A stretch of DNA of 64,000 nucleotides from Candidatus Omnitrophota bacterium (GCA_023227985.1 JALOCB010000005.1:5983-69982), one strand, 5' to 3'; numbered from the stretch's first letter, positions 49,794 to 64,000 are shown. The notes: generated by a model not told the origin, from the letters alone. Made by a program: numbers and translations.

Positions 49794-49821
49794 TTGATTA
49801 CGGGCTTCTTTATGATATAAT
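49794..49821 (+). promoter_or_regulatory. Candidate sigma70 promoter with extended -10 for the downstream accessory operon
   Basis: TTGATT (49794-49799), 16-nt spacer, TGaTATAAT (49813-49821); RBS GAGGGGGTG before ATG 49856. Confidence 0.45.
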
Positions 49822-49855: not shown

Positions 49856-50923
49856 ATGAGTGGCCGGATCAAATTTTTATCCGCTATTTTTGTTGTCGTG
49901 CTGGCCGTTTGTCCGAACGCGGCTTTCGCCGATACGCTCATCTTAACAGACGGGCAAAAGATAGAAGGAAAAATAATAAAAAAGGCCGACTCTTTCATCC
50001 GTATCGAGGAAAACGGCATACCGATCACATATTTTTCAGAAGAGATAAAAGAAATCATTGAATCCCCTCTGGCCCCCGCGGCCGCTGATATAAACCCGCC
50101 GGGCAATACGGCGGTAAACGCCAGTCCTTACCCTGATGCCAAAGCTGACGGCGATACAAGATCCATTCTCGCCGCCGAACCGCCCGCGAATCAAGCTGAT
50201 GCCCCGCGCATAGATTTGCGCGACCTTGATCGCGACAAACTAACCTCGACTATTAAGAATTTTTTCCTGCATCAGTATGATGCGGACCTAACGCAGTTTT
50301 TTACCAGCGTTACGGATGAATTCAGGGAAATTTTTTTGTTTAACCGGGCAAAACGCAATATCCGCCAAGCAAATGATATCCGGGAGGGTATGGAGGATTT
50401 TACGCTTGATGATATTGTCTTGAACGCCGATAACAATTCCATCACGGTCAGCGTTTCTTTTTTTCTGAGCGCTTCATATAAAACCGTCATATTAAAAAGG
50501 GAAGTTTCCGGATGGAAAATAAACAATATACAGCACGCCCAAGGCGAATCCTGGGTTGAAAATCCGGGAATTTCAAATATTCCCGATTACGATAAGATAA
50601 CCGAGGTTATTTGGAATTTTTTCCTGCATCAGAACGATGCGGATCTAACACAGTGTTTTACCAGCGTTACGGATGAATTCAGGAAGATCAGGCAGGCGCA
50701 TATGAAAAAGCGCCGGGTCGGAAACACTGAATCATTGTCCGTAAACAAAAAGAATTTCAGGATGTTTACCCTTGATCTGACCGGCAATACCGGCATGGCA
50801 AACGTTTCCTTCAATTCCGGACCATTGACCATGCGGGTTATAATGAAGCGGAAAGGGGATGACTGGAAAGTGAACGAGATAATAAACAGCACTGAAGGCG
50901 CCGCCCCAGCCAGGTCGTACTAA
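49856..50923 (+). CDS. Secreted protein with two tandem ~110-aa NTF2-like (DUF4878-like) repeat domains
   Basis: Signal peptide MSGRIKFLSAIFVVVLAVCPNAAFA. Two repeats share NFFLHQ[YN]DADLTQ[FC]FTSVTDEFR and a C-terminal …WK[IV]N[NE]I…. Confidence 0.55.
   Translation: MSGRIKFLSAIFVVVLAVCPNAAFADTLILTDGQKIEGKIIKKADSFIRIEENGIPITYFSEEIKEIIESPLAPAAADINPPGNTAVNASPYPDAKADGDTRSILAAEPPANQADAPRIDLRDLDRDKLTSTIKNFFLHQYDADLTQFFTSVTDEFREIFLFNRAKRNIRQANDIREGMEDFTLDDIVLNADNNSITVSVSFFLSASYKTVILKREVSGWKINNIQHAQGESWVENPGISNIPDYDKITEVIWNFFLHQNDADLTQCFTSVTDEFRKIRQAHMKKRRVGNTESLSVNKKNFRMFTLDLTGNTGMANVSFNSGPLTMRVIMKRKGDDWKVNEIINSTEGAAPARSY
50258..50683 (+). repeat. Direct repeat: two 69-nt copies (50258-50326 and 50615-50683), about 93% identical, inside the tandem-repeat gene
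   Basis: aattttttcctgcatcag…ttttaccagcgttacggatgaattcagg appears twice with 5 mismatches; flanking repeat sequence is much more diverged. Confidence 0.8.
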
Positions 50924-50943: not shown

Positions 50944-52002
50944 GTGCCATATACACCCTCTAAAAAACCTCGAACGAATATCGGTATTCGCCATCGCATG
51001 TCGAAAAAAAACACGCGTATAAGCCTGATCGCCATTTTGTTTTTTATAGCCGCGGAATTGCTGTTGCGGTTATTTGGCTGGGGCCCCGCGCCGCACGTAT
51101 ACGAGGAGATCCTTGACCCCGAGATCCAATGGCTCCATACCGCAGGTTTTAAAGGGCGCGTATGGGAAACAGATATCGAAATAAGCCCTCAAAGGATAAG
51201 GGACCGGATCTATTCAATCAATAAACCCAAATATACATTCCGGGTCATCGCAGTCGGTGAATGCACTGTTTTCGGCCGGGCGGTCGCTCTGGAAGAATCT
51301 TTCGTAAAACGATTAGAAGTATTGCTCAATGAACGCAAACCGTTCAAAAACATTAATGACTACGAAGTTATCAATGCGGGCTGCGGCCAATATAACGACC
51401 TCCAAAAAGAAGCCTTTCTCGAGAAATACTGGATGCGCTATAACCCTGACTTGATAATCTTCGGCCATGATCTGGGCTCCAAGGTATGGCTGGAAACCAG
51501 GCTTAAGCTGAGATGGTTCAGCTTGATTCGCGATCGAACGCCTAAACAACTGTATTCCGCGCGTTTTCTGGTATCTTTAATAGAACGTTTTATTATCGCG
51601 CCGGTGGCGCTGAAAATGTCGCACTATGACGAAAAAAATACCGTGCTGACCCGCTATACGGGCGAAGGGCTGCGCCATATTAAAACCGACCAAGCGTTAA
51701 AAAGGCTGTCCTTGTTAAGCCGAAAAACGGATGTCCCCGCCATAATCGTTTTTGTGCCCTGGTTAGGCGATTTATCCGAGGGCAGTTACCCCCATAAATG
51801 GGTGCATGAACTTTACAAAAAAAAGTGCGCGAAAAGCAACCTGGATGTATTGGATCTTTATGACGTCTATTTCAAGAACAAGCAATGCGATTTGTTCTGG
51901 GTCAGCGACGCAAACCGCCGGCCGAACGCGTTAGCGCACAAGATCATAGCCGAAGAGGTTTATCAGGAAATCGTGAAACGGGCTTCTTTGCCTAAAAAAT
52001 AA
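50944..52002 (+). CDS. Membrane-anchored SGNH/GDSL-hydrolase-like protein (AlgJ/DltD-like topology), non-canonical catalytic motifs
   Basis: N-terminal TM helix ISLIAILFFIAAELLLRLFGW. Block-I-like VIAVGECTVFG has GEC instead of GDS. C-terminal SDANRRPNALAH resembles block V. Real start may be ATG 50998. Confidence 0.4.
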   Translation: MPYTPSKKPRTNIGIRHRMSKKNTRISLIAILFFIAAELLLRLFGWGPAPHVYEEILDPEIQWLHTAGFKGRVWETDIEISPQRIRDRIYSINKPKYTFRVIAVGECTVFGRAVALEESFVKRLEVLLNERKPFKNINDYEVINAGCGQYNDLQKEAFLEKYWMRYNPDLIIFGHDLGSKVWLETRLKLRWFSLIRDRTPKQLYSARFLVSLIERFIIAPVALKMSHYDEKNTVLTRYTGEGLRHIKTDQALKRLSLLSRKTDVPAIIVFVPWLGDLSEGSYPHKWVHELYKKKCAKSNLDVLDLYDVYFKNKQCDLFWVSDANRRPNALAHKIIAEEVYQEIVKRASLPKK

Positions 52003-52019
52003 AAGGAACAGATATCACA

Positions 52020-53198
52020 GTGGACAAAAACCTTTGTTTAAAAATATTATTTATCGCTATATCCGCGGGCGCTTGTATGATCTCTTGCGCGTTCAGGCTG
52101 GGCGCCGATGATAATGCCCTGCCTATCCGGTTGGGTTATTTTCATGGCGGCCGGACAGTTTTATTGCTGCGCGCGTATGAAAATGCTGAATTCGATAAAA
52201 ACGGAATCCCGGTTGAGTTTTATTCAAAGAGGTTATATGAAAAAAACTATAAATTGATCCCAAAATCGATCCGGGAATTCAATCAGGGAGGGGGGAACAA
52301 AGCCGGCGCGGTTACCGGCACGGAATTCATGGAAGAGGTCATGAACAAGCAATTTGACCTGGCGGTAGTCGGGGAAAGTTCTTTTATCCGTTCAGTGTGC
52401 GAAGGGCAGCCGGTGGTCGCCATTGCCGAGCTGGGGCATGATGTGCGCGGGCATTCCGGGCATGTTTTCGCGATGAAAAAAGGCTTTAAAGCGGCGAGGC
52501 CTTCGGACTACCTGGGAAAGGTTTTGATCTCCAGGCGGGCCGGCGCCGCGGACGCTATGTTCTTGCGGGAATTCCTTAAAAAAGAAGGGCTCGACACAGA
52601 AAAACAGATATTGCAACTGGACGCCTTGCCCTCCACCCGGGAAGAAAAAAGAAAGCTTCCGAAGAATAAAGTGATAATTGTCGATAACCTGTTTGAAGAC
52701 AAAATGCAGGAAGGCATTGCCCGCGGCGTTATAGACGGCGGGTATTTTCACCTGATGGCTTATTCCAAAATAACCGGTTCATTTAAGATGATCCGGCCCT
52801 TGCATTATTGGGCTGATCCCGAACTTTCCCACGCCCTTTTAGTCTGCCGCAAAGAATTTCTGGAAAACAATAAGGAGCGCTTAACCGCATTTCTTGAGGT
52901 TTATATCAAACGGATACAATACGAGCACGGCCTCAGTTACGAAGATAGGACTAAAAAACAACCCAAGGGGCTGCAGATGGCGGTCAATCTTGACGGGCTT
53001 AATTATCCGCAGTATGATATCGTCCCGATCGTAAACCCCGGGTTGTTATACAGGGTTATGGGATTGTTGAGGAAATATAACTATATCGCCGATAAAAACG
53101 TAAAGATCGAGGATTTTATAGACAATAGCCTGGTATATAAGGCATTAGAGAACCTGGGGATCGGCGAAAAAGATGACCATTGGCAGTCGGAATATTAA
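52020..53198 (+). CDS. Periplasmic solute-binding protein, NitT/TauT (SsuA/NMT1/PhnD-like) superfamily; orphan, no permease or ATPase adjacent
   Basis: GTG start; signal peptide; …LGYFHGGRTVLLLRA… and overall type-2 periplasmic binding protein pattern. Confidence 0.5.
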   Translation: MDKNLCLKILFIAISAGACMISCAFRLGADDNALPIRLGYFHGGRTVLLLRAYENAEFDKNGIPVEFYSKRLYEKNYKLIPKSIREFNQGGGNKAGAVTGTEFMEEVMNKQFDLAVVGESSFIRSVCEGQPVVAIAELGHDVRGHSGHVFAMKKGFKAARPSDYLGKVLISRRAGAADAMFLREFLKKEGLDTEKQILQLDALPSTREEKRKLPKNKVIIVDNLFEDKMQEGIARGVIDGGYFHLMAYSKITGSFKMIRPLHYWADPELSHALLVCRKEFLENNKERLTAFLEVYIKRIQYEHGLSYEDRTKKQPKGLQMAVNLDGLNYPQYDIVPIVNPGLLYRVMGLLRKYNYIADKNVKIEDFIDNSLVYKALENLGIGEKDDHWQSEY

Positions 53199-54207
53199 AA
53201 GAACGGCGGTCCTGCTGGCTGTCCTGTTGATAAGCGGCAAATTCGCGTTTGCCGGGGTTCAGGGACAAGGCCGCAACACCGGCGATTTTACCAATATCAT
53301 CCTGGTAGGCTGGGACGGAACTAACCGGGATATTTTAACGGACTTCCTGCGCGCGGGTAAGCTGCCGAACCTGAAAGAGATAATGCGCGCGGGAGCAATG
53401 GTCAATACCGAGATCACCACGGGACGGACCGAGACTAAGCCGGGATGGGCGGAGATATTGACCGGATATAGCAGCAAGACTGTCGGGGTCCTGGCTAACC
53501 GGATTAACTATAAACCTATACCGGCGGGCTATACTGTTTTCGAAAGGTTGGAGGACGCGTTTGGGGATCGGGGGATCATAACAATATTCCTGGCCGGAAA
53601 AAGGCAGAATTTAGGAGCGCGCGGCCGGCATCGCGTATGGGTCACCGGTCCCAGAAAAGGATGGGACCGCGAAGAAGTCTGGGCAAAAGGCGATTTTTTG
53701 CCGGCCGAGGAAATGATATTATCATTCGAAGGAGAGCCATATTATACGGCTAAACCCCGTCTGGATGTTTATCAGAATGGATTGGGAAACGGCGAGGCAG
53801 TAGTTAAAAACACCCTTAAATACATCAAGAAATACGCGAAATCGCGTTTCTTTATGTTTACGCATTTTGAGGAGCCCGATGAACAGGGGCACGTTTTCGG
53901 GGGATATTCCGCGGAATATGGCCAAGCCTTGATCAAAGACGACATCTGGCTGGGGAGGATCATTGCTGCATTAAAGAAACTGGGGATTTACGAAAAAACA
54001 TTGATCTACGTTGTCACTGACCACGGTTTCGATATAAAAGGGGCCAAGCACCGCTATGAACCGCACACGTTCCTGATAACCAACGATCCCAAAGTGAAGC
54101 GAAATACCGGAGACAGGAAAGACCTTGCCCCGACGGTCCTATCCAGGTTCGGCCTGGACATTGATAAGATTGCCCCTTCTTTGGAAGGGGCTGATCTGAC
54201 CAGGTAG
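53173..54207 (+). CDS. Type I phosphodiesterase / nucleotide pyrophosphatase (NPP) family enzyme, secreted
   Basis: Signal peptide; IILVGWDGT (metal Asp), TETKPGWAEILTGY (Thr nucleophile region, compare TKTFPNHYTIVTGLYP), VVTDHGF. Confidence 0.65.
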   Translation: MTIGSRNIKRTAVLLAVLLISGKFAFAGVQGQGRNTGDFTNIILVGWDGTNRDILTDFLRAGKLPNLKEIMRAGAMVNTEITTGRTETKPGWAEILTGYSSKTVGVLANRINYKPIPAGYTVFERLEDAFGDRGIITIFLAGKRQNLGARGRHRVWVTGPRKGWDREEVWAKGDFLPAEEMILSFEGEPYYTAKPRLDVYQNGLGNGEAVVKNTLKYIKKYAKSRFFMFTHFEEPDEQGHVFGGYSAEYGQALIKDDIWLGRIIAALKKLGIYEKTLIYVVTDHGFDIKGAKHRYEPHTFLITNDPKVKRNTGDRKDLAPTVLSRFGLDIDKIAPSLEGADLTR

Positions 54208-54245: not shown

Positions 54246-55772
54246 ATGCTCATAACCAGGATAATATCAATCTTATTTCTCGCTGTGACTCTCGGGCAAG
54301 CCTGTAGTCAGGCCCAGCCTGATCCGGTTGCCTATGATTACGAGGATTTCAATCTAATCCTTATCGCCATCAATAATATCGGCGTCGAGCATATGAGTCT
54401 TTACGGATACAGCCGCCAGACCACCCCTAAACTGGATGCCTGGGCCAAGAATGCCCTGGTATTCGATGACGCGTATACCCCGGCATCCTGGACCCTGCCG
54501 GTGATGACTACCTTTTTTACTTCATTATACCCGTATACCCACGGGATCGCCAACCGTTCTTTTGATAATGCGCTGTCGCCCGAAACAGTCGTTTTGCCTG
54601 ATTTACTGCGAAGCTATGGATATGATACCGCCGCTTTTACCGGCGGCCTGGACAATAACAAGGTTTTCAGCCATATGAAAGGGTTCAACCATATCGCGGA
54701 TAATCCGGCGTATACGGGCTTTAAAATAACATTTAAACAAGCCTCTGACTGGCTCCGCAGGAATTCCGGGAAAAAGTTCTTTCTATTTATACAAGGTTAT
54801 GACGCGCACGCGCCTTTCAAGCCTCCGAAAAAGTTCAAGGGAGTATTCAGCGATACTGCCGGCAAGAAGATCACGATAAACCCGGATTTAACCTATCGCG
54901 GGTTTGAGGACCACGGCGGCCAATACTGGGCGCATTATTTCATCCCGGAAGAAGGCGCATATAACGGCCTGCGAAAAAGATGGAAGATAACGCCGCCGGT
55001 AAAAATAACCCGTGATGATATAGACCATCTGCGGGACCTTTATGATGAAGAAGTGCTATCTGTCGATTCGCAAACGGCAAGCTTCCTTGATTCTCTTGGT
55101 AAGGGTCTACTTAAAAATACAATAATCGTCGTTTTTTCCGAGCACGGGGAGATGTTCGCCAAGCATGGGAGGTTTGGGCGCGCAGGGACATTGCGCGGCG
55201 TGCTTTATGACGATGTGGTCCATGTGCCTTTGATGATAAAACTTCCCGGGCAAAAAGGCCGGAGGATAACCGGATTTGTCAATATGGCCGATATGATGCC
55301 GACAATCCTGGATTTATTGGGTATCCCCGCTATAAAGAATATCCAGGGGCTGTCCCTGATCCCGCTGATGAAGGATCAGACCCAGATAAATGATCATATC
55401 TATGCAGGCGCGTCGTATAACCTCACGAAGATACGCGAAAAAAAATTATATATGAACCCCAACGTCAATGAATCCATACGCAACGCCGATTGGAAGCTTA
55501 TACATGAGATAATTTATGAGCAGGAAAACCCGAAAATCCCCAGGTCCGAATGGCTCAATATCAAATCGGAGACATACGAGCTATATCATCTCGCGAGCGA
55601 CCCTGACGAACTTACGAATGTGCTCGATAAACATCCTCAAATGGCAACGGCGCTTTGCCAGAAACTAAAAAAGTGGTCTGAGGATTGCAGGAGTTTCAGT
55701 AACCACGCCGCGGTAACCTCAAAAATACCGGATGGCATATTAGAGGATGCCCGTGAAAACGGCTATTGGTAA
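54246..55772 (+). CDS. Secreted alkaline-phosphatase-superfamily 'sulfatase-fold' protein, Thr-type, paralog 1
   Basis: 508 aa; LILIAINNIG, TPASWTLP (Thr at the formylglycine position, no C-x-P-x-R), GYDAHAPF, FSEHGEMF. Confidence 0.7.
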   Translation: MLITRIISILFLAVTLGQACSQAQPDPVAYDYEDFNLILIAINNIGVEHMSLYGYSRQTTPKLDAWAKNALVFDDAYTPASWTLPVMTTFFTSLYPYTHGIANRSFDNALSPETVVLPDLLRSYGYDTAAFTGGLDNNKVFSHMKGFNHIADNPAYTGFKITFKQASDWLRRNSGKKFFLFIQGYDAHAPFKPPKKFKGVFSDTAGKKITINPDLTYRGFEDHGGQYWAHYFIPEEGAYNGLRKRWKITPPVKITRDDIDHLRDLYDEEVLSVDSQTASFLDSLGKGLLKNTIIVVFSEHGEMFAKHGRFGRAGTLRGVLYDDVVHVPLMIKLPGQKGRRITGFVNMADMMPTILDLLGIPAIKNIQGLSLIPLMKDQTQINDHIYAGASYNLTKIREKKLYMNPNVNESIRNADWKLIHEIIYEQENPKIPRSEWLNIKSETYELYHLASDPDELTNVLDKHPQMATALCQKLKKWSEDCRSFSNHAAVTSKIPDGILEDARENGYW

Positions 55773-55797
55773 TAACCGCTGATAATTTTAATACCCT

Positions 55798-57339
55798 ATG
55801 TTTATACTACGCATATTTCTGGTTTTGGTTATTGCGATCTTGTCGGGCGAGCGCCGTGTTTACGCTCAGCAGGACCAGGATAACCTATCATATAAGGGCT
55901 TCAACGTAATTCTGATCGCCATCAACAATATCGGCGCGGAACATATGAGCCTCTACGGATACCGCCGTGACACCAACCCTAAATTCAAAGTATGGGCAAA
56001 GGACGCGTTGATATTTGAAAACGCGTATTCCCCGGCATCCTGGACCCTGCCGGTAATAACAACTGTTTTTACGGCATTGAACCCGTATACACATAAGGTT
56101 ATGGATAGATACTTCGAAAATACACTTTCCACCGATATTAAGACGCTGCCGCAGGTCCTGGCTTATAACGGCTATGCCACCGCCGCTTTTACCGGAGGCC
56201 TTGATGATAATCGCATCTTTGGACATATGCGCGGTTTTTCGCAGACCGACGCAAACCCGTCTTTTACGGGTTTTGCGGTGACTTTAAAACAGGCGCGCAA
56301 ATGGCTTGCCCGTAACTCAAAAAATAAGTTTTTTCTGTTCGTCCACGGTTATGACGCTCATCCGCCGTTCACCCCGCCCCGGAAATTCCGAGGCGTCTTC
56401 AGCGACACAAAAGGCAAGGATATAACCATAAAACCAGGCTTTACCTATCGCGGCTTCCGGAAATTCGACGGCCGGTATCAGGCCTATTGCATAACCAGGG
56501 AGGATCCGCTGCATCCCAATATGGAACACGCTCAGGTTGATCCCGGGGACATATTCCCCCGTATCGTATTGACCCAGGACGACGTGGATTATTTGACCGA
56601 CCTGCATGATGAGACCATTTTGTCAGTCGATTCGCAAGTAACCAAATTCCTGGGCTCACTTGATAAAAACCTGCTGAAGAAAACGATCATCGTTGTTTTT
56701 TCTGAACATGGCGAAATGTTCGCTAAACACGGCAGATTCGGGCGCGTAGGCACAATACGCGGAACGCTTTACGATGACGTGGTCCACATACCGTTATTGG
56801 TCAAAATCCCCGGGCTAAAAAACCGCAGGATAACCGGGCTGGTCCAACTCGCGGATATTATGCCCACAATACTGGATTTACTGGACATCCCGTTCCTGCG
56901 CCGGTTGCAGGGAAGGTCTCTGGTGCCGTTGATAAAGCACGACCTGGCCGTTAATGATTATGTTTATTCGGGCGCGGCATATAACTTCGCCGGAGGGCCG
57001 AAAAGGCCGTTCTCAAGCTATCCCAGTATCAATGAGTCGATCCGTAACCAGGATTGGAAGCTAATACACGAAATATTCTTTTCGGCGGATACCAAGGGAA
57101 AATTCAGCGATAATACGTCACTAAAGGTACAAGAAGAATCATTTGAGCTGTATGACCTTAACGCCGATCCAAACGAACTAAATAATGTGCGTAGCGCGTA
57201 TCCGGAAAAAACGAAAGAATTAACCGCCCTATTGGCCGAATGGTCCCAGGCATGCCGGGTTTCCGGCCAGTTCAATGCGTCTACCCAAAGGATCCCCGAC
57301 AAGATGATCAAAGACGCCAGAGAGCACGGTTATTGGTAG
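55798..57339 (+). CDS. Secreted alkaline-phosphatase-superfamily 'sulfatase-fold' protein, Thr-type, paralog 2
   Basis: 513 aa; about 65-70% identical to paralog 1 over the N-terminal core (VILIAINNIGAEHMSLYGY…SPASWTLP…FSEHGEMF). Confidence 0.7.
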   Translation: MFILRIFLVLVIAILSGERRVYAQQDQDNLSYKGFNVILIAINNIGAEHMSLYGYRRDTNPKFKVWAKDALIFENAYSPASWTLPVITTVFTALNPYTHKVMDRYFENTLSTDIKTLPQVLAYNGYATAAFTGGLDDNRIFGHMRGFSQTDANPSFTGFAVTLKQARKWLARNSKNKFFLFVHGYDAHPPFTPPRKFRGVFSDTKGKDITIKPGFTYRGFRKFDGRYQAYCITREDPLHPNMEHAQVDPGDIFPRIVLTQDDVDYLTDLHDETILSVDSQVTKFLGSLDKNLLKKTIIVVFSEHGEMFAKHGRFGRVGTIRGTLYDDVVHIPLLVKIPGLKNRRITGLVQLADIMPTILDLLDIPFLRRLQGRSLVPLIKHDLAVNDYVYSGAAYNFAGGPKRPFSSYPSINESIRNQDWKLIHEIFFSADTKGKFSDNTSLKVQEESFELYDLNADPNELNNVRSAYPEKTKELTALLAEWSQACRVSGQFNASTQRIPDKMIKDAREHGYW

Positions 57340-57421
57340 GATTTTTAAAATGACTTGTTTTTATCCTGGTTTTAGATTACAATTTATTTTTGCTCTGCAA
57401 AATATCATTTAAACAAAGACC

Positions 57422-58801
57422 ATGATGGATATACTTCAAAAAATAAAGGAAGAGTCAATAAAACCGCAAAAGACCGATCCCAATAAACCCCGCTTCGCCC
57501 TTATTGTACCGCCGTCTTGTTTTACCGTGCCCGAGGGATGGGAATTTGTTTTGAAGCAGCCCTTTGAAGGGGTTTCGTATATAGCTACCGTGCTGTTCAA
57601 TGCCGGTTTTCCGGTCCGGATCATTGACGCGCGTTTTCAGGATGATCCGGTAAAATTCGCGGTCGATTCGGTCAAAGACGCGGCAGTGGTCGGTATGGCT
57701 ACGTATGAGGATTCTTTCCCCTTTGTCCATGAAGCATGCGCGAAGATCAAACAAAAATACCCGGAGAAATTGATCGTTTTAGGCGGCGCTTTGGTGACTT
57801 CCACTCCGCAGGTACTTATAAAAAATACCGCCGCTGATATCGGCGTGCTCGGCGAAGGCGAAGAGACTACCCGGGAGCTCCTGGATGCCATCGCCGAAGG
57901 CAAACCGGAGGATTTTGAAAAGATCGCCGGATTATGCTATAAGGACAATTCCGGCGGCATTCATTTTACCGAAAAACGCCCGCAGATGGCCGACCTGGAA
58001 TCACTGCCGTTAATGAACCTCTCTTTATGGCCGGCGGTGCAGAAAGACAAAAAGGTCAAGGAGATATTCTTCTCCCATAGCCGCGGATGTTACAAGAATT
58101 GTTCATTCTGTTTCCGGACCACCCCGCAGCTCAGCCAAAAGTCGATCGGGAAATTCCAGGATGAGCTCAGGGAACTGAAAAAACAATATGATTTCGAATT
58201 CATTTATTTCGTGGACCTGACTTTCGCCATCCAGAAACAACGGACACTTGAGATATGCGAAGTTTTAAAAGAGTTCAAAGTCAGTTGGTCGTGCATGTCC
58301 AGGGTCCAGAATATAGACGAAGAAATGCTAAAGGCGATGAAAGCCGCCGGCTGTCAGATAATCCTCTACGGCTTCGAATCACTGGACCAAAATATCCTGG
58401 ATAACGCTCATAAAGGCATCACCCCTGCGCAGATACGCAGGATGGTAAAATTAACCCAGGACAACGGGATACAGGTAGGAGGACTGTTCATTGTGGGCCT
58501 GCCCCAGGAAACCAAAGAATCCCTGAGAAAAGTCGTTGATTTTATCGATGAGACCGGGAGCGCGTGCCGGGTGAAATATTTATCCGCTATCCCGGGCACT
58601 GAAATTTACCGTTGGGCGCTCGCAACCGGGATAATCAAAGATGAGGTAAGCCATTTGCGCTGGCTGGCAAATGAAAGATGCGATAAAGACGACGAATTTA
58701 TAAATTTCACGCGGCTGCCGGATGAAGTCATACGCGACACCTATATGGAAATAAATTCAAAATATATCAAAGGCCCGCGCTACACTAATGAATGGTTTTA
58801 A
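57422..58801 (+). CDS. B12-binding-domain radical SAM enzyme (class B), paralog 1
   Basis: 459 aa; N-terminal cobalamin-binding Rossmann-like domain; SRGCYKNCSFCF = CX3CX2C. Confidence 0.8.
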   Translation: MMDILQKIKEESIKPQKTDPNKPRFALIVPPSCFTVPEGWEFVLKQPFEGVSYIATVLFNAGFPVRIIDARFQDDPVKFAVDSVKDAAVVGMATYEDSFPFVHEACAKIKQKYPEKLIVLGGALVTSTPQVLIKNTAADIGVLGEGEETTRELLDAIAEGKPEDFEKIAGLCYKDNSGGIHFTEKRPQMADLESLPLMNLSLWPAVQKDKKVKEIFFSHSRGCYKNCSFCFRTTPQLSQKSIGKFQDELRELKKQYDFEFIYFVDLTFAIQKQRTLEICEVLKEFKVSWSCMSRVQNIDEEMLKAMKAAGCQIILYGFESLDQNILDNAHKGITPAQIRRMVKLTQDNGIQVGGLFIVGLPQETKESLRKVVDFIDETGSACRVKYLSAIPGTEIYRWALATGIIKDEVSHLRWLANERCDKDDEFINFTRLPDEVIRDTYMEINSKYIKGPRYTNEWF

Positions 58802-58828
58802 GGCCATCACCGGGAAGGAGTCTTTGCT

Positions 58829-60253
58829 TTGAAGAAAACCAGCCTTTCAGCCGTTGAAGAATCGATTAAAGGCGCATCGTCTTCGCCATTGACTGCCGAT
58901 CCTAAAAAACCGCGGTTCATAATCATTGTCCCGCCTTCGCCGCAAATACCCACACCGGGGCGGGAATTCCTGCTGCGCACGCCCATTGAAGGCGTTACCT
59001 TTATCGCCACTGTGGCCAAGAACGCCGGTTTCGGCGTTGAGATCGTGGATTACCGCACCACGCCGGTCCCGCCTGAAGAATTGATCGCGAAAAGCGGCGA
59101 TCACGCTATTTTTGCGCTAACCACCTTTATCGACGGTTATGTTTTTATGGAAGATTTTATCCGCAGGGTAAAAAAAATTGATCCCGGCAACATCGTCATA
59201 TTGGGAGGCCCGTTTGTTTCCTCTACCCCGGAATTACTGATGCGCGCTTTGCCGGCGGATTTCGCGGTACTGGGGGAAGGGGAATTGACGATCCTGGAGC
59301 TTCTGGCCGCTCTATCCGGCAAAACGCCGGAAAAAATACCGCTGATCGACGGGTTAGCCTATCGGGAAAATGGAAAGATCAAATTTACCAGGCCCCGGGC
59401 GCAGATAAATGACCTGGATATCCTGCCGGCGCTGGATTTTTCTCTCTGGCCGACTGTCGCCAAAGACAGGTTGATCGAAAAGATCGGGATATCGTCAAGC
59501 CGCGGGTGTTACGCGCGCTGTTCTTTCTGTTTTAAGGCCATACCCGAAGTCCGCCAAATGACCCCGGAGAAATTCGGACAGGATATGGCCGCGTATGTGC
59601 GCAAATATGGGATAAAATACGCCTATATCAACGACCTTACCTTTGTCATCGGCAGGACGCGGACAGTAAAATTATGCGAGGAACTTAGGAAAACCGGGGT
59701 GCGCTGGGCTTGTTCCACCAGGGTGGAGAATATCGACGACGACCTGTTGAGGCTGATGAAGGACTGCGGCTGCGATGAAATATGGTACGGGATAGAATCG
59801 GTCGACCAAAAAGTACTTAACGCCAATTTCAAGAATATAACCGTGGAAAAGATCGAGCGGGCTGTGGAGATGACCAATAAGGCCGGGATCAAGGTCATGG
59901 CTAACTTTATTGTAGGACTGCTGGGAGAAACCGAGGAGTCTCTCGACCAGATGGTAAGGTTTATCGAGACCCAGGATATCATCCCATGCAGCATTAAATA
60001 TCTGACCCCGTTCCCCGGGACCCCGGTTTATCAATACGCGCTTGAAAAGAAGCTTATCGTCGATGAAATAGAGTATTTCCGCGTTTTAGGCCAGCGTAAA
60101 GTCAATTGTGCCGAGGATACGATCGTTAATTGCACCAGCCTGGCCGAATCTAAGCTCAGAGAAGCATTTATGCGGATCCGACGCATCTCTTATGACCGTT
60201 ACGGACCTCTGGATTGGGATAATGGATCACAAACAACTAAAAAAACAGTTTAA
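58829..60253 (+). CDS. B12-binding-domain radical SAM enzyme (class B), paralog 2
   Basis: 474 aa; TTG start after GGGAAGGAG; SRGCYARCSFCF; about 45% identical to paralog 1. Confidence 0.8.
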   Translation: MKKTSLSAVEESIKGASSSPLTADPKKPRFIIIVPPSPQIPTPGREFLLRTPIEGVTFIATVAKNAGFGVEIVDYRTTPVPPEELIAKSGDHAIFALTTFIDGYVFMEDFIRRVKKIDPGNIVILGGPFVSSTPELLMRALPADFAVLGEGELTILELLAALSGKTPEKIPLIDGLAYRENGKIKFTRPRAQINDLDILPALDFSLWPTVAKDRLIEKIGISSSRGCYARCSFCFKAIPEVRQMTPEKFGQDMAAYVRKYGIKYAYINDLTFVIGRTRTVKLCEELRKTGVRWACSTRVENIDDDLLRLMKDCGCDEIWYGIESVDQKVLNANFKNITVEKIERAVEMTNKAGIKVMANFIVGLLGETEESLDQMVRFIETQDIIPCSIKYLTPFPGTPVYQYALEKKLIVDEIEYFRVLGQRKVNCAEDTIVNCTSLAESKLREAFMRIRRISYDRYGPLDWDNGSQTTKKTV

Positions 60254-60962
60254 GAACCGGGCGAGGACATTCGACAGATCCGCGAGATGGGTCAAAGACC
60301 CGGGGCTTTTGGATATCCACCGCAAACTTGCCAAGATACTTCCCGGCGAAACCGTTCTTGAGGCATGCTGCGGTACGGGGATCGTTGGTGCGGACCTATG
60401 CAAAAGCGGCAACACGGCCATCGGTCTGGATCTGAGCCTGGATATGCTGGGATTTGCCGGTAAACGCCTGGATCATTGCGTCAACGCACAAACCGAGCAT
60501 CTGCCTTTCGCCGATAATACGTTTGACGTCGCGGCCTGCCGCCAGGCAATGCATTTTCTGGATATGAAACGTTTTTTCTTTGAATTATTCCGGGTCGTAA
60601 AACCAGGCACAGGCAGGGTAATAATAAGCCAGATCGTCCCGTTCGGAGAAAAGGATAAGGCCTGGGTGCGCAGGATCCATCAAAAAAAACAGAATATGCT
60701 GCGCAATTTCGTCTGCGAGCAGGATATCCTGGACGGCTTGAAAAGGGCCGGGTTTAAAAAAATCGAGCGCCGCGAATATACCATTGAAGAGCCGATAAAC
60801 CCGTGGCTGACCGACACATTTTTCCCGCCTAAAAAGATCGAAGAATTAAAGGGAATGTTTATCAACGCGCCTGCGCAATACAAGGAATTACACCGCGTCC
60901 GCTGCGTAAGAGGCGCGATCTACGAAACGATGCGCTGGATAATAGCTTTAGGGAGGAAATAA
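60222..60962 (+). CDS. Class I SAM-dependent methyltransferase
   Basis: ATG 60222 (MDHKQLKK…), overlapping the radical-SAM gene end; motif I VLEACCGTGIVG, then GLDLS, FADNTFDVAA, LFRVVKPGTGRVI. Confidence 0.65.
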   Translation: MDHKQLKKQFKNRARTFDRSARWVKDPGLLDIHRKLAKILPGETVLEACCGTGIVGADLCKSGNTAIGLDLSLDMLGFAGKRLDHCVNAQTEHLPFADNTFDVAACRQAMHFLDMKRFFFELFRVVKPGTGRVIISQIVPFGEKDKAWVRRIHQKKQNMLRNFVCEQDILDGLKRAGFKKIERREYTIEEPINPWLTDTFFPPKKIEELKGMFINAPAQYKELHRVRCVRGAIYETMRWIIALGRK

Positions 60963-60965
60963 AAG

Positions 60966-62366
60966 ATGCCCCGCGCCGGTTCATTTCTGATCTTGCTGGG
61001 AATAATATGTTTTTCCGCTAACGCGCACGCCGGGGATACCGCCGCCGTAATAAAGAGCGGGCAGTTCAAGGGGTATAATGTTCTGCTCGTTTCTTTTGAC
61101 GCGCTGCAGGCCGGGCATGTCGGATGCCTTGGCTATAGCCGCAATACCACCCCGACCATAGATTCATTCGCCGGGGAAGGTTTTCTGTTCAAGAACGCCG
61201 TTTCCCAGGCTTCCTGGACCGTGCCGGCGACGATGAGCTACTTTACCTCGCTTTATCCGTCGCAACACCGTTGCGTAAACAAATATTCCGTATACACCGA
61301 TAATGAAAAAATATTGACCAGCCTGAAAGACCTCTCCCCGGAAACCGTAACCCTGGCCGAGGTGTTAAAAAACAACGGCTACGCGACCGGGGGATTTACC
61401 GGCGATGCCGGGGTAAGCGGGCATTTCGGCTTCGGCCAGGGATTTGATACTTATTTCGACGGTCCTAAATTCGGAGGAATGGATACCAGTATCCCTGAAG
61501 CCCTTAAATGGCTGAGATCCAACCACAATAGAAAATTCTTTATTTTTCTGCACGGCTACGATTGCCACGGCCAATATGACCCGCCCAACGGCTTTACCCG
61601 GCGCTACCTTGATTTTAATTATACCGGACCGTTAAAAGGCGGCAAAGAAGAGCAGGGAAGGCTGCGCGAAGACAGCCTGAATAAGAACGCCATAAGCCTG
61701 ACCGAGCAGGACGCCGGATTCTGGAGGTCGTTGTATGACGAAAAAATAAACGACGTCGATGAACGGTTCCGCCAGTTCATCGAAGCCCTGCGCAAAATGG
61801 GCGTTTTAGACAAAACCGTTATAATACTTGTTTCCGACCATGGCACGGAATTCTATGAGCATAAAAGGTTTGACCACGGGCATTCTCTTTACGATGAACT
61901 TATACGCGTGCCGCTTATCTTCCGGCTTCCGGGGATAAAAAAGAACGCCGTTATTCCCGACCAGGTGCGCGGCATCGATATAATGCCTACGGTTCTGGAC
62001 CTGATCGGGATTAAAATTACCGGAAAAGTAAAAAACCAGGCCAAAGGCGTGAGCCTGAGGCCGCTGATGAACGGAGAGAAGCTGAAGCTGGACGCCTACA
62101 GCGAAACGGATTACCGGTTTTATACCAGCAAGCGCTCGATCCGCACAGCCGACGGCTGGAAATTAATTTACACTATGGAAACCGGAAAAAAAGAACTTTA
62201 TAACCTGCAAACCGACCCCGCTGAAACGGTCAACCGTGTTGCTGACGAACAGAAAACCGCGTACGAGCTGGAACAAAAACTTTTTGCCTGGATGCGATCC
62301 ATGGGGCAGGGGGAGAATTACCACGAAGACCTGTTAAGAAGCGTGCTGCGGATCAAAGAATATTGA
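60966..62366 (+). CDS. Secreted alkaline-phosphatase-superfamily 'sulfatase-fold' protein, Thr-type, paralog 3
   Basis: 466 aa; VSFDAL, SQASWTVP, GYDCHGQY, VSDHGTEF. Confidence 0.7.
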   Translation: MPRAGSFLILLGIICFSANAHAGDTAAVIKSGQFKGYNVLLVSFDALQAGHVGCLGYSRNTTPTIDSFAGEGFLFKNAVSQASWTVPATMSYFTSLYPSQHRCVNKYSVYTDNEKILTSLKDLSPETVTLAEVLKNNGYATGGFTGDAGVSGHFGFGQGFDTYFDGPKFGGMDTSIPEALKWLRSNHNRKFFIFLHGYDCHGQYDPPNGFTRRYLDFNYTGPLKGGKEEQGRLREDSLNKNAISLTEQDAGFWRSLYDEKINDVDERFRQFIEALRKMGVLDKTVIILVSDHGTEFYEHKRFDHGHSLYDELIRVPLIFRLPGIKKNAVIPDQVRGIDIMPTVLDLIGIKITGKVKNQAKGVSLRPLMNGEKLKLDAYSETDYRFYTSKRSIRTADGWKLIYTMETGKKELYNLQTDPAETVNRVADEQKTAYELEQKLFAWMRSMGQGENYHEDLLRSVLRIKEY

Positions 62367-62374
62367 CGCCCTAA

Positions 62375-63748
62375 ATGCCTGATTGCAGGAAGATATTATC
62401 ACTTTTTTTGCTTTCATCCCTGATCCCCGTATTGCCGCTTTACGCGCAATCCCCGGTTGATCCCGCTTCCGGTTATAACCTGATATTCATCTGCCTGGAT
62501 ACCCTGCGCCCCGACCACCTGGGATGTTACGGCTACGGACGCAATACCAGCCCGCGTATCGACGCGATATCCGGCCAGGGGGTATTGTTCAAGAATGCCT
62601 TCGCCCAGTCTAACTTTACCCTGGCCAGCCACGCTTCTTTGTTCACCTCAAAATACGCTCATAGCCATAACGCCGACCGGATCGAGCGCCGGCTCGCGGA
62701 TGAAGAAATAACCATAGCGGAGGTACTTAAAGCCAACGGCTATAAAACCGCGGCTTTTATACACAATGCGCAGCAATTCGACCCGAAATTCGGGCTTAAC
62801 CAGGGTTTTGAGACATATGATTTCGCGGTAGAAGCCAACCGGCGTCCTTCGATAGAAAAAACGCTCCCTGCCTGCCTAAAATGGATAACCCGCCATAAAA
62901 ACGAGAGATTTTTCGTTTTTCTGCATGCCAATGATATACACGAACCATATCATTGCCCGGATGAGGATTATTTCGACGAAGGATATCACGGCCGGCTGGA
63001 TCAGGAGTATATGGCAACCTGGCCGCCGGGATTCCACACGCGCAATCTCAAACGGACCAAACAAGAGGCCCGGCATATAATCGCACACTATGACGCGGGG
63101 ATCAGATACACGGACTCCTACGTTGGTAAATTCTTCGATCATTTAAAGGGGGCCGGGTTGCTGAATAAAACAATACTGGTGTTCTTTTCCGACCACGGCG
63201 AAATACTGGGTGAAAGAAAAAAGTTTTTCGGGCATGGATTAAGCCTGCATGACGAAGAAGTGCGCGCGGCTTTGTTGTTTTGCCTGCCTCAGGCAAAACA
63301 ACAAACAGTCGAGGAACAGGCACAGTTGGTCGATATAATGCCTACTGTGCTGGAATTGCTGCGGATAGATACCAAAGGGCTCGGGCTTGAAGGGAAAAGC
63401 CTGGTTAAAACATTTTTGCCGGGCAGCGCCATCGACGAAGAAATAAATGAATATGTTTATGCGGGATGCCTGAGCGGCGAAAGCGAGGACAACGGCCTGA
63501 CCGATACCCAGGCGATGATCCGCAGCCGCTCATGGAAACTTATTACACATACATGGGGATTCCCGGCGGATCATAAAAATATCAAAAGCGTGCAGATGCA
63601 TAACGGCGCGATCATAACCGCTCCTTTCAGGAACAGGATCGAACTGTATGACCTTAGAAAAGACCCCCGGGAAATAAACAACCTGGCCGGCCGGGGATAC
63701 GCCGATATCGAAAACATGTTATTGTCAAAACTGCTGGAATTATTTTAA
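62375..63748 (+). CDS. Secreted alkaline-phosphatase-superfamily 'sulfatase-fold' protein, paralog 4
   Basis: 457 aa; ICLDTL, AQSNFTLAS, ANDIHEPY, FSDHGEILG. Confidence 0.7.
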   Translation: MPDCRKILSLFLLSSLIPVLPLYAQSPVDPASGYNLIFICLDTLRPDHLGCYGYGRNTSPRIDAISGQGVLFKNAFAQSNFTLASHASLFTSKYAHSHNADRIERRLADEEITIAEVLKANGYKTAAFIHNAQQFDPKFGLNQGFETYDFAVEANRRPSIEKTLPACLKWITRHKNERFFVFLHANDIHEPYHCPDEDYFDEGYHGRLDQEYMATWPPGFHTRNLKRTKQEARHIIAHYDAGIRYTDSYVGKFFDHLKGAGLLNKTILVFFSDHGEILGERKKFFGHGLSLHDEEVRAALLFCLPQAKQQTVEEQAQLVDIMPTVLELLRIDTKGLGLEGKSLVKTFLPGSAIDEEINEYVYAGCLSGESEDNGLTDTQAMIRSRSWKLITHTWGFPADHKNIKSVQMHNGAIITAPFRNRIELYDLRKDPREINNLAGRGYADIENMLLSKLLELF

Positions 63749-63750
63749 CA

Positions 63751-64000
63751 ATGAGAATAAAGCTTATATTCTTTTGTGCCCTTACTATCGCCGGACCGTT
63801 TATCGCCTCGCGGGCTTACCCTGCCGGCCCGAAATATAACATAGTTATTATCGTCGTCAACGCGCTAAGGACCGATTATATGGGCTGTTACGGGTCCCGG
63901 CAGGGGAATACCCCGAATATTGATTCCCTTGCCGCTGAAGGCGCGTTATTCGATAACGCAATAAGCCAGTCATATTGGACGCTGCCCAGCATGGTATCTT
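63751..64000 (+). CDS. Secreted alkaline-phosphatase-superfamily 'sulfatase-fold' protein, paralog 5 (N-terminal fragment; continues beyond window)
   Basis: ATG 63751: MRIKLIFFCALTIAGPFIASRA…NIVIIVVNALRTDYMGCYG…TPNIDSLAAEGALFDNAISQSYWTLPSMVS. Confidence 0.6.
   Translation, partial: MRIKLIFFCALTIAGPFIASRAYPAGPKYNIVIIVVNALRTDYMGCYGSRQGNTPNIDSLAAEGALFDNAISQSYWTLPSMVS

Follow-up and report, generated by a model that had tools for sequence, protein, structure and literature searches.

Sulfatase-Fold Paralogs with Threonine at the Nucleophile Position and Two Types of Active Site in a Gene Cluster of Candidatus Omnitrophota

The DNA analyzed here is a stretch of 64,000 bp from Candidatus Omnitrophota bacterium (GCA_023227985.1, JALOCB010000005.1:5983–69982), referred to below as the window. 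It ends with a tightly packed row of genes on the plus strand, with intergenic gaps of 2–82 nt or short overlaps. Five of these genes encode sulfatase-fold proteins, named W1 to W5. All five have threonine (Thr) where sulfatases have the Cys or Ser from which formylglycine (FGly) is derived, and their active sites are of two types. Type A (W3 and W4) resembles the site of EptA and MCR-1. Type B (W1, W2, and W5) lacks the first acidic metal ligand and carries three other charged residues. Based on the sequences, W1–W5 can with moderate confidence be considered as soluble, Sec-exported metalloenzymes that use a Thr nucleophile for phosphoryl transfer, most likely hydrolases, and not as sulfatases.

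Threonine at the Nucleophile Position of W1 to W5

W1 (54246..55772), its paralog W2 (55798..57339), W3 (60966..62366), and W4 (62375..63748) match PF00884 (Sulfatase) with E-values of 1e-36 to 1e-45, as well as the C-terminal subdomain SGSH_C. Only the first 83 aa of W5 (63751..64000) are encoded before the window ends. Over 15 kb, the window shows 99.95% identity to JAQTRK010000002.1 from a Candidatus Omnitrophica metagenome-assembled genome (MAG; GCA_028711865.1), and the full-length W5 of 453 aa was taken from that record (L002:17954-19315), where the gene row stops after W5. Homologs of W5 match the same two families.

The residues around the first metal ligand, the nucleophile, and the second metal-binding motif are INNIG, SWTLPVM, and SEHGE in W1; INNIG, SWTLPVI, and SEHGE in W2; FDAL, SWTVPAT, and SDHGT in W3; LDTL, NFTLASH, and SDHGE in W4; and VNAL, YWTLPSM, and ADHGE in W5. 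In alignments by phmmer with solved sulfatases, the DD pair of 3ED4 is matched by the NN of W1, the Cys/Ser nucleophile by the Thr of SWTLPV, and the Arg of C-x-P-x-R by the following Met. W3 is aligned in the same register to 7STT. A profile of 98 W1-family sequences gives this register again against BT4656 and three other sulfatases, and a profile of the wider family puts the same Thr on the catalytic Thr of Escherichia coli EptA. The residue at +4 from the nucleophile is M, I, T, H, and M in W1–W5, respectively, and never Arg. Thr is seen at the nucleophile position in 119 of 120 W1-family sequences and in 128 of the best 148 W3 representatives, with occasional Ser. The agreement of independent alignments and the conservation in the family reject a placement of Thr by chance or misalignment.

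A first-pass annotation of this DNA had listed these motifs, all of which are present, and had proposed Thr at the nucleophile position without a following Arg, as in enzymes of the LtaS, EptA, and NPP types. The pairwise and profile alignments bear this out, and the profile alignment places no other residue at the nucleophile position. It had also equated the Asn residues with the metal-binding Asp pair of sulfatases. The homology holds in the alignments, and W1, W2, and W5 lack the first acidic ligand. The NN pair of W1 and W2 needs a correction, as only its second Asn is invariant in the W1/2 family (117/117), while the first is variable (S37, N35, T25, and G16 of 120).

The sequence C/S-x-P/A-x-R is the defining criterion of S1 sulfatases, and PF00884 is reported to hold many Thr proteins that are not to be regarded as sulfatases (PMC5066984). 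W1–W5 lack this signature, and judged by it they are not S1 sulfatases. In the profile alignment with BT4656, a Gly is placed on the sulfate-binding Lys (in the Lys-x-His loop, where the alignment is locally ambiguous), and Arg312 of type B is placed on Lys(+13). Among the genes of the window, neither a formylglycine-generating enzyme (FGE) nor an anaerobic sulfatase-maturating enzyme (anSME) of the SPASM type was found as a maturase partner; the only nearby radical S-adenosylmethionine (SAM) proteins are B12-binding and have no SPASM match.

The overall fold is that of sulfatases and phosphonate monoester hydrolases (PMHs). The AlphaFold2 model of W1 has a mean pLDDT of 89.4 and a pTM of 0.89, and its best 50 Foldseek matches in the Protein Data Bank (PDB) are all FGly sulfatases or PMHs, with TM scores of 0.55–0.67 and 15–21% identity. 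Neither LtaS nor EptA is among these 50. In NCBIfam, the arylsulfatase model PRK13759 gives 98–144 bits, while the EptA and LtaS models give 20–49 bits (42–49 bits for EptA models on W4), all far under their cut-offs, as are the scores for CptA. The PMH model PehA gives 57–112 bits against a cut-off of 900, and the YejM/PbgA model matches all W proteins weakly (28–35 bits). Thus, assignment to a known NCBIfam family was rejected, since none reaches its cut-off. Near its N-terminus, every W protein has one hydrophobic segment, after which comes an Ala-x-Ala-like site, and there are no other membrane segments; this is also the case for two proteins encoded upstream, W0 and an NMT1-like protein. 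The fold and sequence matches together with this lone N-terminal segment indicate that the scaffold of W1–W5 is that of a soluble periplasmic sulfatase or PMH.

Two Types of Active Site

W-class proteins from the fetched loci and database matches were aligned to compare their sites. His188, in the numbering of W1, is fixed in both types, as are the nucleophile Thr (rarely Ser) and the His of (D/E)-H-G-E.

Type A includes W3, W4, and about 90% of the best 148 W3 representatives. Its first ligand is Asp, rarely Glu, and its Asp-His pair is followed by a His 13–14 residues past the Asp. W3 has D, T, K(+21), H, D-H, and H(+13) at the compared positions. W4 has D, T (with a His at the Arg position, +4), H, D-H, and H. 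The best 148 representatives of the W3 clade keep D/E (133), H (143), and D-H (127/136) along with the Thr. In the profile alignment with EptA, the first Asp, the Thr, the Asp-His pair, Glu(+3), and His(+13) of type A correspond to E246, T285, D465/H466, E468, and H478 of MCR-1. His188 lies outside this alignment; from the local motif H-G-x-x-Y, we infer that it is equivalent to His395 of MCR-1. In the structure of MCR-1, Glu246, Thr285, Asp465/His466, Glu468, and His478 constitute the Zn1 site, the phospho-Thr acceptor, and the second-shell or Zn2 site (PMC5216409).

Type B includes the W1/2 family and the W5 clade. Here the residue at the position of the first ligand is never acidic, and there are near-invariant residues at three other positions: Arg at +21 from the nucleophile, Asp136, and Arg at +13. 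The site of W1 consists of N43 N44, T83, R104, D136, H188, E299 H300, and R312, and W2 has the same signature. In 98–120 sequences of the W1/2 family, N44, W82, T83, P85, H99, R104, D136, H188, H300, G301, E302, and R312 are invariant or near-invariant. Full-length W5 has N, T, R(+21), D, H, D-H, and R(+13), and among the 40 homologs closest to it, 36 show the near-invariant signature N/S/T-x-T...R...D...H...D/E-H...R.

The presence of Asp136 is strongly linked to the first ligand. In the locus set, Asp136 is seen in 58 of 60 sequences with a non-acidic first ligand, versus 4 of 55 with an acidic one; in the set from the W5 search, the counts are 38/41 versus 1/79. The change in type B is thus one of four coupled positions, not a lone swap of Asp to Asn. 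The position +13 forms a series, with Lys in sulfatases and PMHs, His in EptA and type A, and Arg in type B. Arg(+21) is aligned by phmmer with an Asn of the Agrobacterium PMH, which we take to be the substrate-binding Asn78 of RlPMH. Asp136 is presumably in the loop that bears Lys123 and His125 in arylsulfatase A, judging from its spacing to the nucleophile; the local alignment is ambiguous.

In W1, W2, and W5, Arg104, Asp136, and Arg312 are conserved along with Thr, His188, and (D/E)-His, which indicates that the site of type B is remodeled rather than decayed, as far as can be read from the sequences. This speaks against the alternative of pseudo-enzymes in the first-pass annotation. In a neighbor-joining tree built without the four signature columns, the W1/2 family is grouped with the W3 clade and W5 is placed elsewhere, and quartets based on BLAST scores agree. 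Type B as a single split was recovered in 0 of 100 bootstraps. This suggests two origins, or two reversions, of type B, with the reservation that a crude neighbor-joining tree is weak evidence for sequences so divergent.

Proposed Function

It can be proposed that W1–W5 catalyze phosphoryl transfer on a phosphodiester, phosphonate monoester, or phosphomonoester via a covalent phospho-threonine, on the two-domain scaffold of sulfatases and PMHs. In type A, the center would be like that of EptA and MCR-1. A divalent metal would be held by the Asp of the first strand, the Thr alkoxide, and the Asp-His pair, and His188 and His(+13) may contact the phosphoryl group or a second metal. In type B, the first carboxylate and His(+13) would have been lost, with Asp136, Arg(+21), and Arg(+13) gained. 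The metal is then probably on Asn, Thr, and (Asp/Glu)-His, with or without Asp136, and the two arginines might bind the phosphoryl group instead. W1–W5, W0, and the NMT1-like binding protein could work as a conserved periplasmic multi-enzyme set on a common class of phospho-ester substrates. Because W1–W5 are soluble and similar to sulfatases and PMHs, their most likely activity is the hydrolysis of phosphodiesters or phosphonate monoesters. In one contig, a TonB-dependent receptor is encoded beside the W, W0, and NMT1-like set, which fits substrate uptake and degradation. A function as sulfatases fails because the signature C/S-x-P/A-x-R is absent and the sulfate-binding Lys and His residues are lost.

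Several observations weigh against hydrolysis of phospho-esters. The genes for two cytoplasmic B12-binding radical SAM proteins (rSAM-A and rSAM-B) and a methyltransferase are within the operon, and this arrangement is recurrent in other phyla; a simple scavenging model fails to explain it. Related loci show a sulfur theme, with sulfotransferases and binding proteins of the SsuA/TauA type, so that sulfate or sulfonate esters are possible substrates. The solved structures closest to W1 are only 15–21% identical to it. Finally, type B could have lost catalysis along with its first carboxylate, because the corresponding mutants MCR-1 E246A (PMC5216409) and D20N of the FGly enzyme EfAS (PMC12421950) are inactive.

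A serious rival, although one of rather low probability, is that the W proteins are periplasmic phospho-group transferases rather than hydrolases. They would form a phospho-Thr-X like LtaS, EptA, or the soluble OpgB, and pass the substituent to a glycan or lipid of the envelope. The substituent could be phosphoglycerol, phosphoethanolamine, or a phosphonate, possibly methylated by the radical SAM proteins and the methyltransferase, and each class of W protein would add or trim a different one. The constellation of EptA and MCR-1 at five aligned positions of type A, with His188 as a probable further equivalent, is consistent with this, and the embedded radical SAM and methyltransferase genes suit biosynthesis better than degradation. 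In related loci, glycosyltransferases, sugar-nucleotide genes, a YdjC-family deacetylase, and a large polytopic membrane protein are encoded near W1-family and radical SAM genes, and one W homolog (P0103) is fused to a GT1 domain. However, EptA and LtaS reach lipid donors by means of a multi-pass membrane domain that is missing from the W proteins. In sequence and fold, the W proteins are nearer to sulfatases and PMHs, which are hydrolytic, than to either of these transferases, and the cluster in this window contains no glycosyltransferase or flippase.

It is less probable still that W1, W2, and W5 are catalytically dead, ligand-binding pseudo-enzymes like the periplasmic domain of YejM/PbgA, and that they would sense a phospho- or sulfo-ester or present it to the type-A paralogs. 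The missing first carboxylate, with the inactive mutants cited above, is what such proteins would show, and domains of the W1/2 class are found fused to an NMT1 domain similar to binding proteins. However, Thr, His188, (D/E)-His, Glu302, and the three extra charged residues are near-invariant in more than 100 sequences from several phyla, and binding modules seldom preserve a nucleophile and two metal ligands. The dN/dS of type B is no higher than that of type A. Asn can also serve as a metal ligand in sulfatases, as Asn318 of PAS does (PMC5066984). The coordinated gain of Asp136 and two Arg residues beside near-invariant Thr, His188, and (D/E)-His fits compensation better than decay.

Very unlikely is the idea that the W proteins are true sulfatases, or a new type of esterase, whose Thr or other residue is modified by the adjacent B12-binding radical SAM proteins in parallel to anSME. 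In its specific form, which is equally doubtful, the radical SAM pair and the methyltransferase would convert the nucleophile Thr of the exported W proteins to a ketone hydrate, or C-methylate an active-site residue. The position of these genes between the paralogs would fit, as would the sulfur theme of related loci and the finding that, in 14 of about 49 loci belonging to several phyla, B12-binding radical SAM genes are no more than 10 kb away from W-family genes. (Such context counts are for about 45–49 non-redundant loci with a W1-family gene, labeled by BLAST with the proteins of the window and with no matched background.) However, relatives of rSAM-A occur without a nearby W gene (L009–L011), many W loci are without a radical SAM gene, both proteins belong to the B12 class with no SPASM or twitch domain detected in Pfam or NCBIfam, and the recognition motif of anSME is absent. 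The sulfate-binding Lys-x-His and Lys are replaced, and oxidation of Thr, which has never been observed, would yield a ketone instead of FGly (PMC5066984). If it were true, the modification would be a new protein-derived cofactor, and it would explain how type B dispenses with the canonical carboxylate ligand.

Gene Cluster and Chromosomal Setting

The five genes had been described as tandem paralogs in the first-pass annotation. All five are present, but they are not strictly tandem: W1 and W2 are separated from W3, W4, and W5 by the two radical SAM genes and the methyltransferase gene in a 2 + 3 layout, and a sixth gene of the alkaline phosphatase (AP) superfamily, W0, is located directly upstream.

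W0 (53173..54207, plus strand, like all genes described here) encodes an exported enzyme of 344 aa similar to nucleotide pyrophosphatases/phosphodiesterases (NPPs). It matches PF01663 with an E-value of 2e-22 and 80.6 bits, against a cut-off of 23. When aligned to ENPP4 and the NPP of Xanthomonas (Xac), its D (GWDG), T (TETKPG), D-x-x-G-H (EPDEQGH), and D-H (TDHG) are placed on the NPP ligands. By this alignment it has the Thr nucleophile and five of the six bimetallo ligands, and the sixth, a C-terminal His, is beyond the aligned region. W0 has Gly-Trp where NPPs have Asn-His after the nucleophile.

The start of W0 overlaps by 26 nt with the gene of the NMT1-like protein (52020..53198), a homolog of NMT1/THI5-like periplasmic binding proteins (PF09084, E-value of 1.4e-7). 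This protein has a signal-like N-terminus, and neither a permease nor an ATPase gene is adjacent to it. It is 35–39% identical to the N-terminal domain of four database proteins from Elusimicrobiota (P0065, P0066, P0072, and P0078), and the domain fused to it in these proteins is of the W1/2 class, type B. No match was found by phmmer against PDB, and an AlphaFold2 model from an alignment of five sequences (pLDDT of 55) was too poor for a fold search.

Two orphan genes precede it. The protein encoded at 50944..52002 has 352 aa, with a single N-terminal membrane or signal segment, and no match in Pfam, NCBIfam, or PDB. A 74% identical ortholog is encoded at the same position in a related locus with the same gene order (L001), and weak homologs adjoin a W1-family gene in a Gottesmanbacteria MAG (L023). 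The gene at 49856..50923 is possibly the first of the operon and encodes an exported protein of 355 aa, with an N-terminal hydrophobic segment and without a Pfam match or an assigned family. It contains a direct repeat of 104 nt (50228–50331 and 50585–50688, 83% identity) that encodes a duplicated module, NFFLHQxDADLTQxFTSVTDEFR... A promoter-like sequence, TTGATT-16-TATAAT, is located just upstream at 49794–49821; it is a consensus match only, and the counts of promoters and terminators across the window are at the chance level. The position of this gene is kept in L001, which weakly suggests that it belongs to the module.

Downstream of W2, rSAM-A (57422..58801) and rSAM-B (58829..60253) are encoded. 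They are paralogous, match PF02310 and PF04055, and, like the methyltransferase, have no hydrophobic segment; rSAM-A has the motif CxxxCxxC. The best NCBIfam match of rSAM-A, HpnJ, reaches 187 bits where the cut-off is 578, which excludes membership, and that of rSAM-B is BchE with 153 bits, also below the cut-off. The class I SAM-dependent methyltransferase of 246 aa (PF08241/PF13649) is placed at 60222..60962 based on the gene call of the near-identical MAG, where it overlaps with rSAM-B by 32 nt. In the mechanical open reading frame, the start is the GTG at 60108, which gives an overlap of 146 nt with the end of rSAM-B.

About 90 proteins make up the rSAM-A family, which is a distinct group, and one member is fused to a methyltransferase in a Bacteriovorax MAG (P0208). 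An ortholog of rSAM-A with more than 40% identity is present in 6 further W1-family loci, usually together with the methyltransferase, and a more distant B12-binding radical SAM gene is present in 7–8 additional ones. The methyltransferase and rSAM-A are found together in L016–L021 and L009–L011, and distant relatives of rSAM-B adjoin W1-family genes in L005, L014, L015, L023, and L041. In L009 and L010, rSAM-A is accompanied by sulfotransferases of the 3′-phosphoadenosine-5′-phosphosulfate (PAPS) type, an ADI-family gene, and a fusion of a GyrB ATPase and a methyltransferase, and in L011 by an ABC importer of the NitT/TauT type. Since the rSAM-A family also occurs without W genes, the radical SAM and methyltransferase genes form a portable module whose link to the W set exists in some cases but is not obligatory.

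Upstream of the cluster are rpoB/C, fusA, tuf, the ribosomal-protein operon, groEL, dnaG, rpoD, uvrD, and addAB. The cluster lies between addAB/uvrD/rpoD and genes for PilZ and RNase H proteins, and a mobile element or island was rejected. The uniform GC content, the housekeeping neighbors, and the absence of any tRNA or Rfam element in the window indicate that the gene cluster is part of the core chromosome.

Age and Distribution

W1 and W2 are 54% identical to each other, and all other pairs of W proteins are 27–34% identical. Based on this low identity between classes, each of which has orthologs in other phyla, recent tandem duplication was rejected. Compared with L001, in which the proteins are 63–87% identical to those of the window, dN/dS is 0.08–0.19 for every W gene, the NMT1-like gene, both radical SAM genes, and the methyltransferase gene, values that are rough as dS is near saturation. 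The W paralogs are ancient and under purifying selection. Their reading as sub-functionalised paralogs in the first-pass annotation agrees with these facts, as they represent separate, old orthologous classes that co-occur across phyla.

Relatives of W1 at E ≤ 1e-10 number 1,448 and come from Omnitrophota, Elusimicrobiota, the Candidate Phyla Radiation (CPR)/Patescibacteria, Gemmatimonadota, and others. At E ≤ 1e-30, W3 has 18,315 matches, counted as cluster representatives at 50% identity. Additional domains, among them thrombospondin type-3 repeats (PF02412) and a dockerin (PF00404), are carried by many type-A relatives (P0285–P0324), and some representatives have two to five sulfatase-fold domains per chain, with lengths of 900–1,550 aa.

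In Elusimicrobiota, Gemmatimonadota, and other MAGs, the W classes are found together as a set. W3, W4, and W5 classes are present together in many W1-family loci (for example, L016, L018, L020, and L047–L054); the NMT1-like gene is seen in 19 and a W0-like gene in 15. A PF01663 protein of about 670 aa (DGMRAD, SHTPTNW, and SSDHG), which is absent from this window, is encoded next to W1-family genes in 13 loci (for example, L007:7891-9933 and L040:11958-13964) from CPR, Elusimicrobiota, and other MAGs. In an Elusimicrobiales MAG (L005:2744-9767), a B12-binding radical SAM protein, a polytopic membrane protein of 769 aa without a Pfam match, a YdjC-family deacetylase, and two methyltransferases are encoded divergently from a W1-family gene. 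The pairing of YdjC with an HpnJ-like radical SAM protein there might recall the hopanoid head-group genes hpnK and hpnJ. Assignment of a substrate from the context was tried and rejected, as phosphonate, arsenic, hopanoid-like cyclitol, and sulfur themes each have at most weak, below-threshold matches. No characterization of this clade was found in the literature, where the sole pertinent remark is the one cited above on Thr proteins in PF00884.

Implications

Thr in place of FGly in PF00884 proteins is already known, and it covers a very large uncharacterized clade. What is modestly new is the coupled rewiring of type B and the conserved gene module in multiple phyla. Relatives of the W proteins are labeled in databases as sulfatase, arylsulfatase A-like, or choline-sulfatase. 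Inferences on sulfur cycling drawn from those labels for MAGs of Omnitrophota, Elusimicrobiota, CPR, and Gemmatimonadota are probably wrong because the proteins lack the defining sulfatase signature.

The W proteins could be considered as a natural experiment for the enzymology of the AP superfamily. Type A would combine a sulfatase/PMH scaffold with an EptA-like Thr center. In type B, apparently in two lineages, Asp136 and two Arg residues would have replaced a His and the universally conserved first carboxylate. The Lys/His/Arg series at +13 offers a compact handle on the retuning of charge for different esters. The module with the NMT1-like binding protein, the NPP-like enzyme, and the radical SAM and methyltransferase genes points to an unrecognized periplasmic pathway in poorly known phyla.

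Comparison with Known Systems

FGly sulfatases (S1; arylsulfatase A and BT4656) and PMHs (S1_0; RlPMH and BcPMH) are the closest to the W proteins in sequence and fold. They share the two-domain architecture, the general acid equivalent to His188, and periplasmic export, and the D-H metal pair of the W proteins is as in PMH and EfAS. In contrast, the W proteins have Thr for the Cys/Ser-derived FGly, no Arg at +4, no Lys-x-His pair, and no FGE or anSME partner, and Lys(+13) is changed to His in type A or Arg in type B. Compared with PMH, which has FGly, an Asp/Asp-His metal site, and Lys337, W3 and W4 keep D...D-H, but the nucleophile is Thr and the Lys is replaced.

The periplasmic domain of YejM/PbgA (LapC) likewise has the sulfatase fold of PF00884; its nucleophile position is occupied by Thr, its metal site is degenerate, and whether it is an enzyme or a pseudo-enzyme is debated. 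YejM/PbgA is membrane anchored. The site residues of the W proteins are far more conserved, and the W genes have no context of lipopolysaccharide regulation.

NPPs (PF01663) are matched by W0 at the Thr and five of the six bimetallo ligands. As soluble, secreted Thr phosphodiesterases, they are the analogy proposed for W1–W5, although W1–W5 belong to PF00884, lack the second-metal motif D-x-x-x-H, and probably bind one metal.

EptA and MCR-1, with LtaS and OpgB, share the Thr nucleophile. The W proteins differ from EptA, MCR-1, and LtaS in having the sulfatase-type SGSH_C subdomain and no N-terminal domain of about five transmembrane helices. W1, W2, and W5 have neither the first carboxylate nor His(+13), so that the Zn/Mn ligand set is present only in part. 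The constellation of W3 and W4 matches that of EptA and MCR-1 at five positions, and the chemistry to be expected by this likeness would be a metal-activated attack of Thr on a phosphodiester that yields a covalent phospho-Thr.

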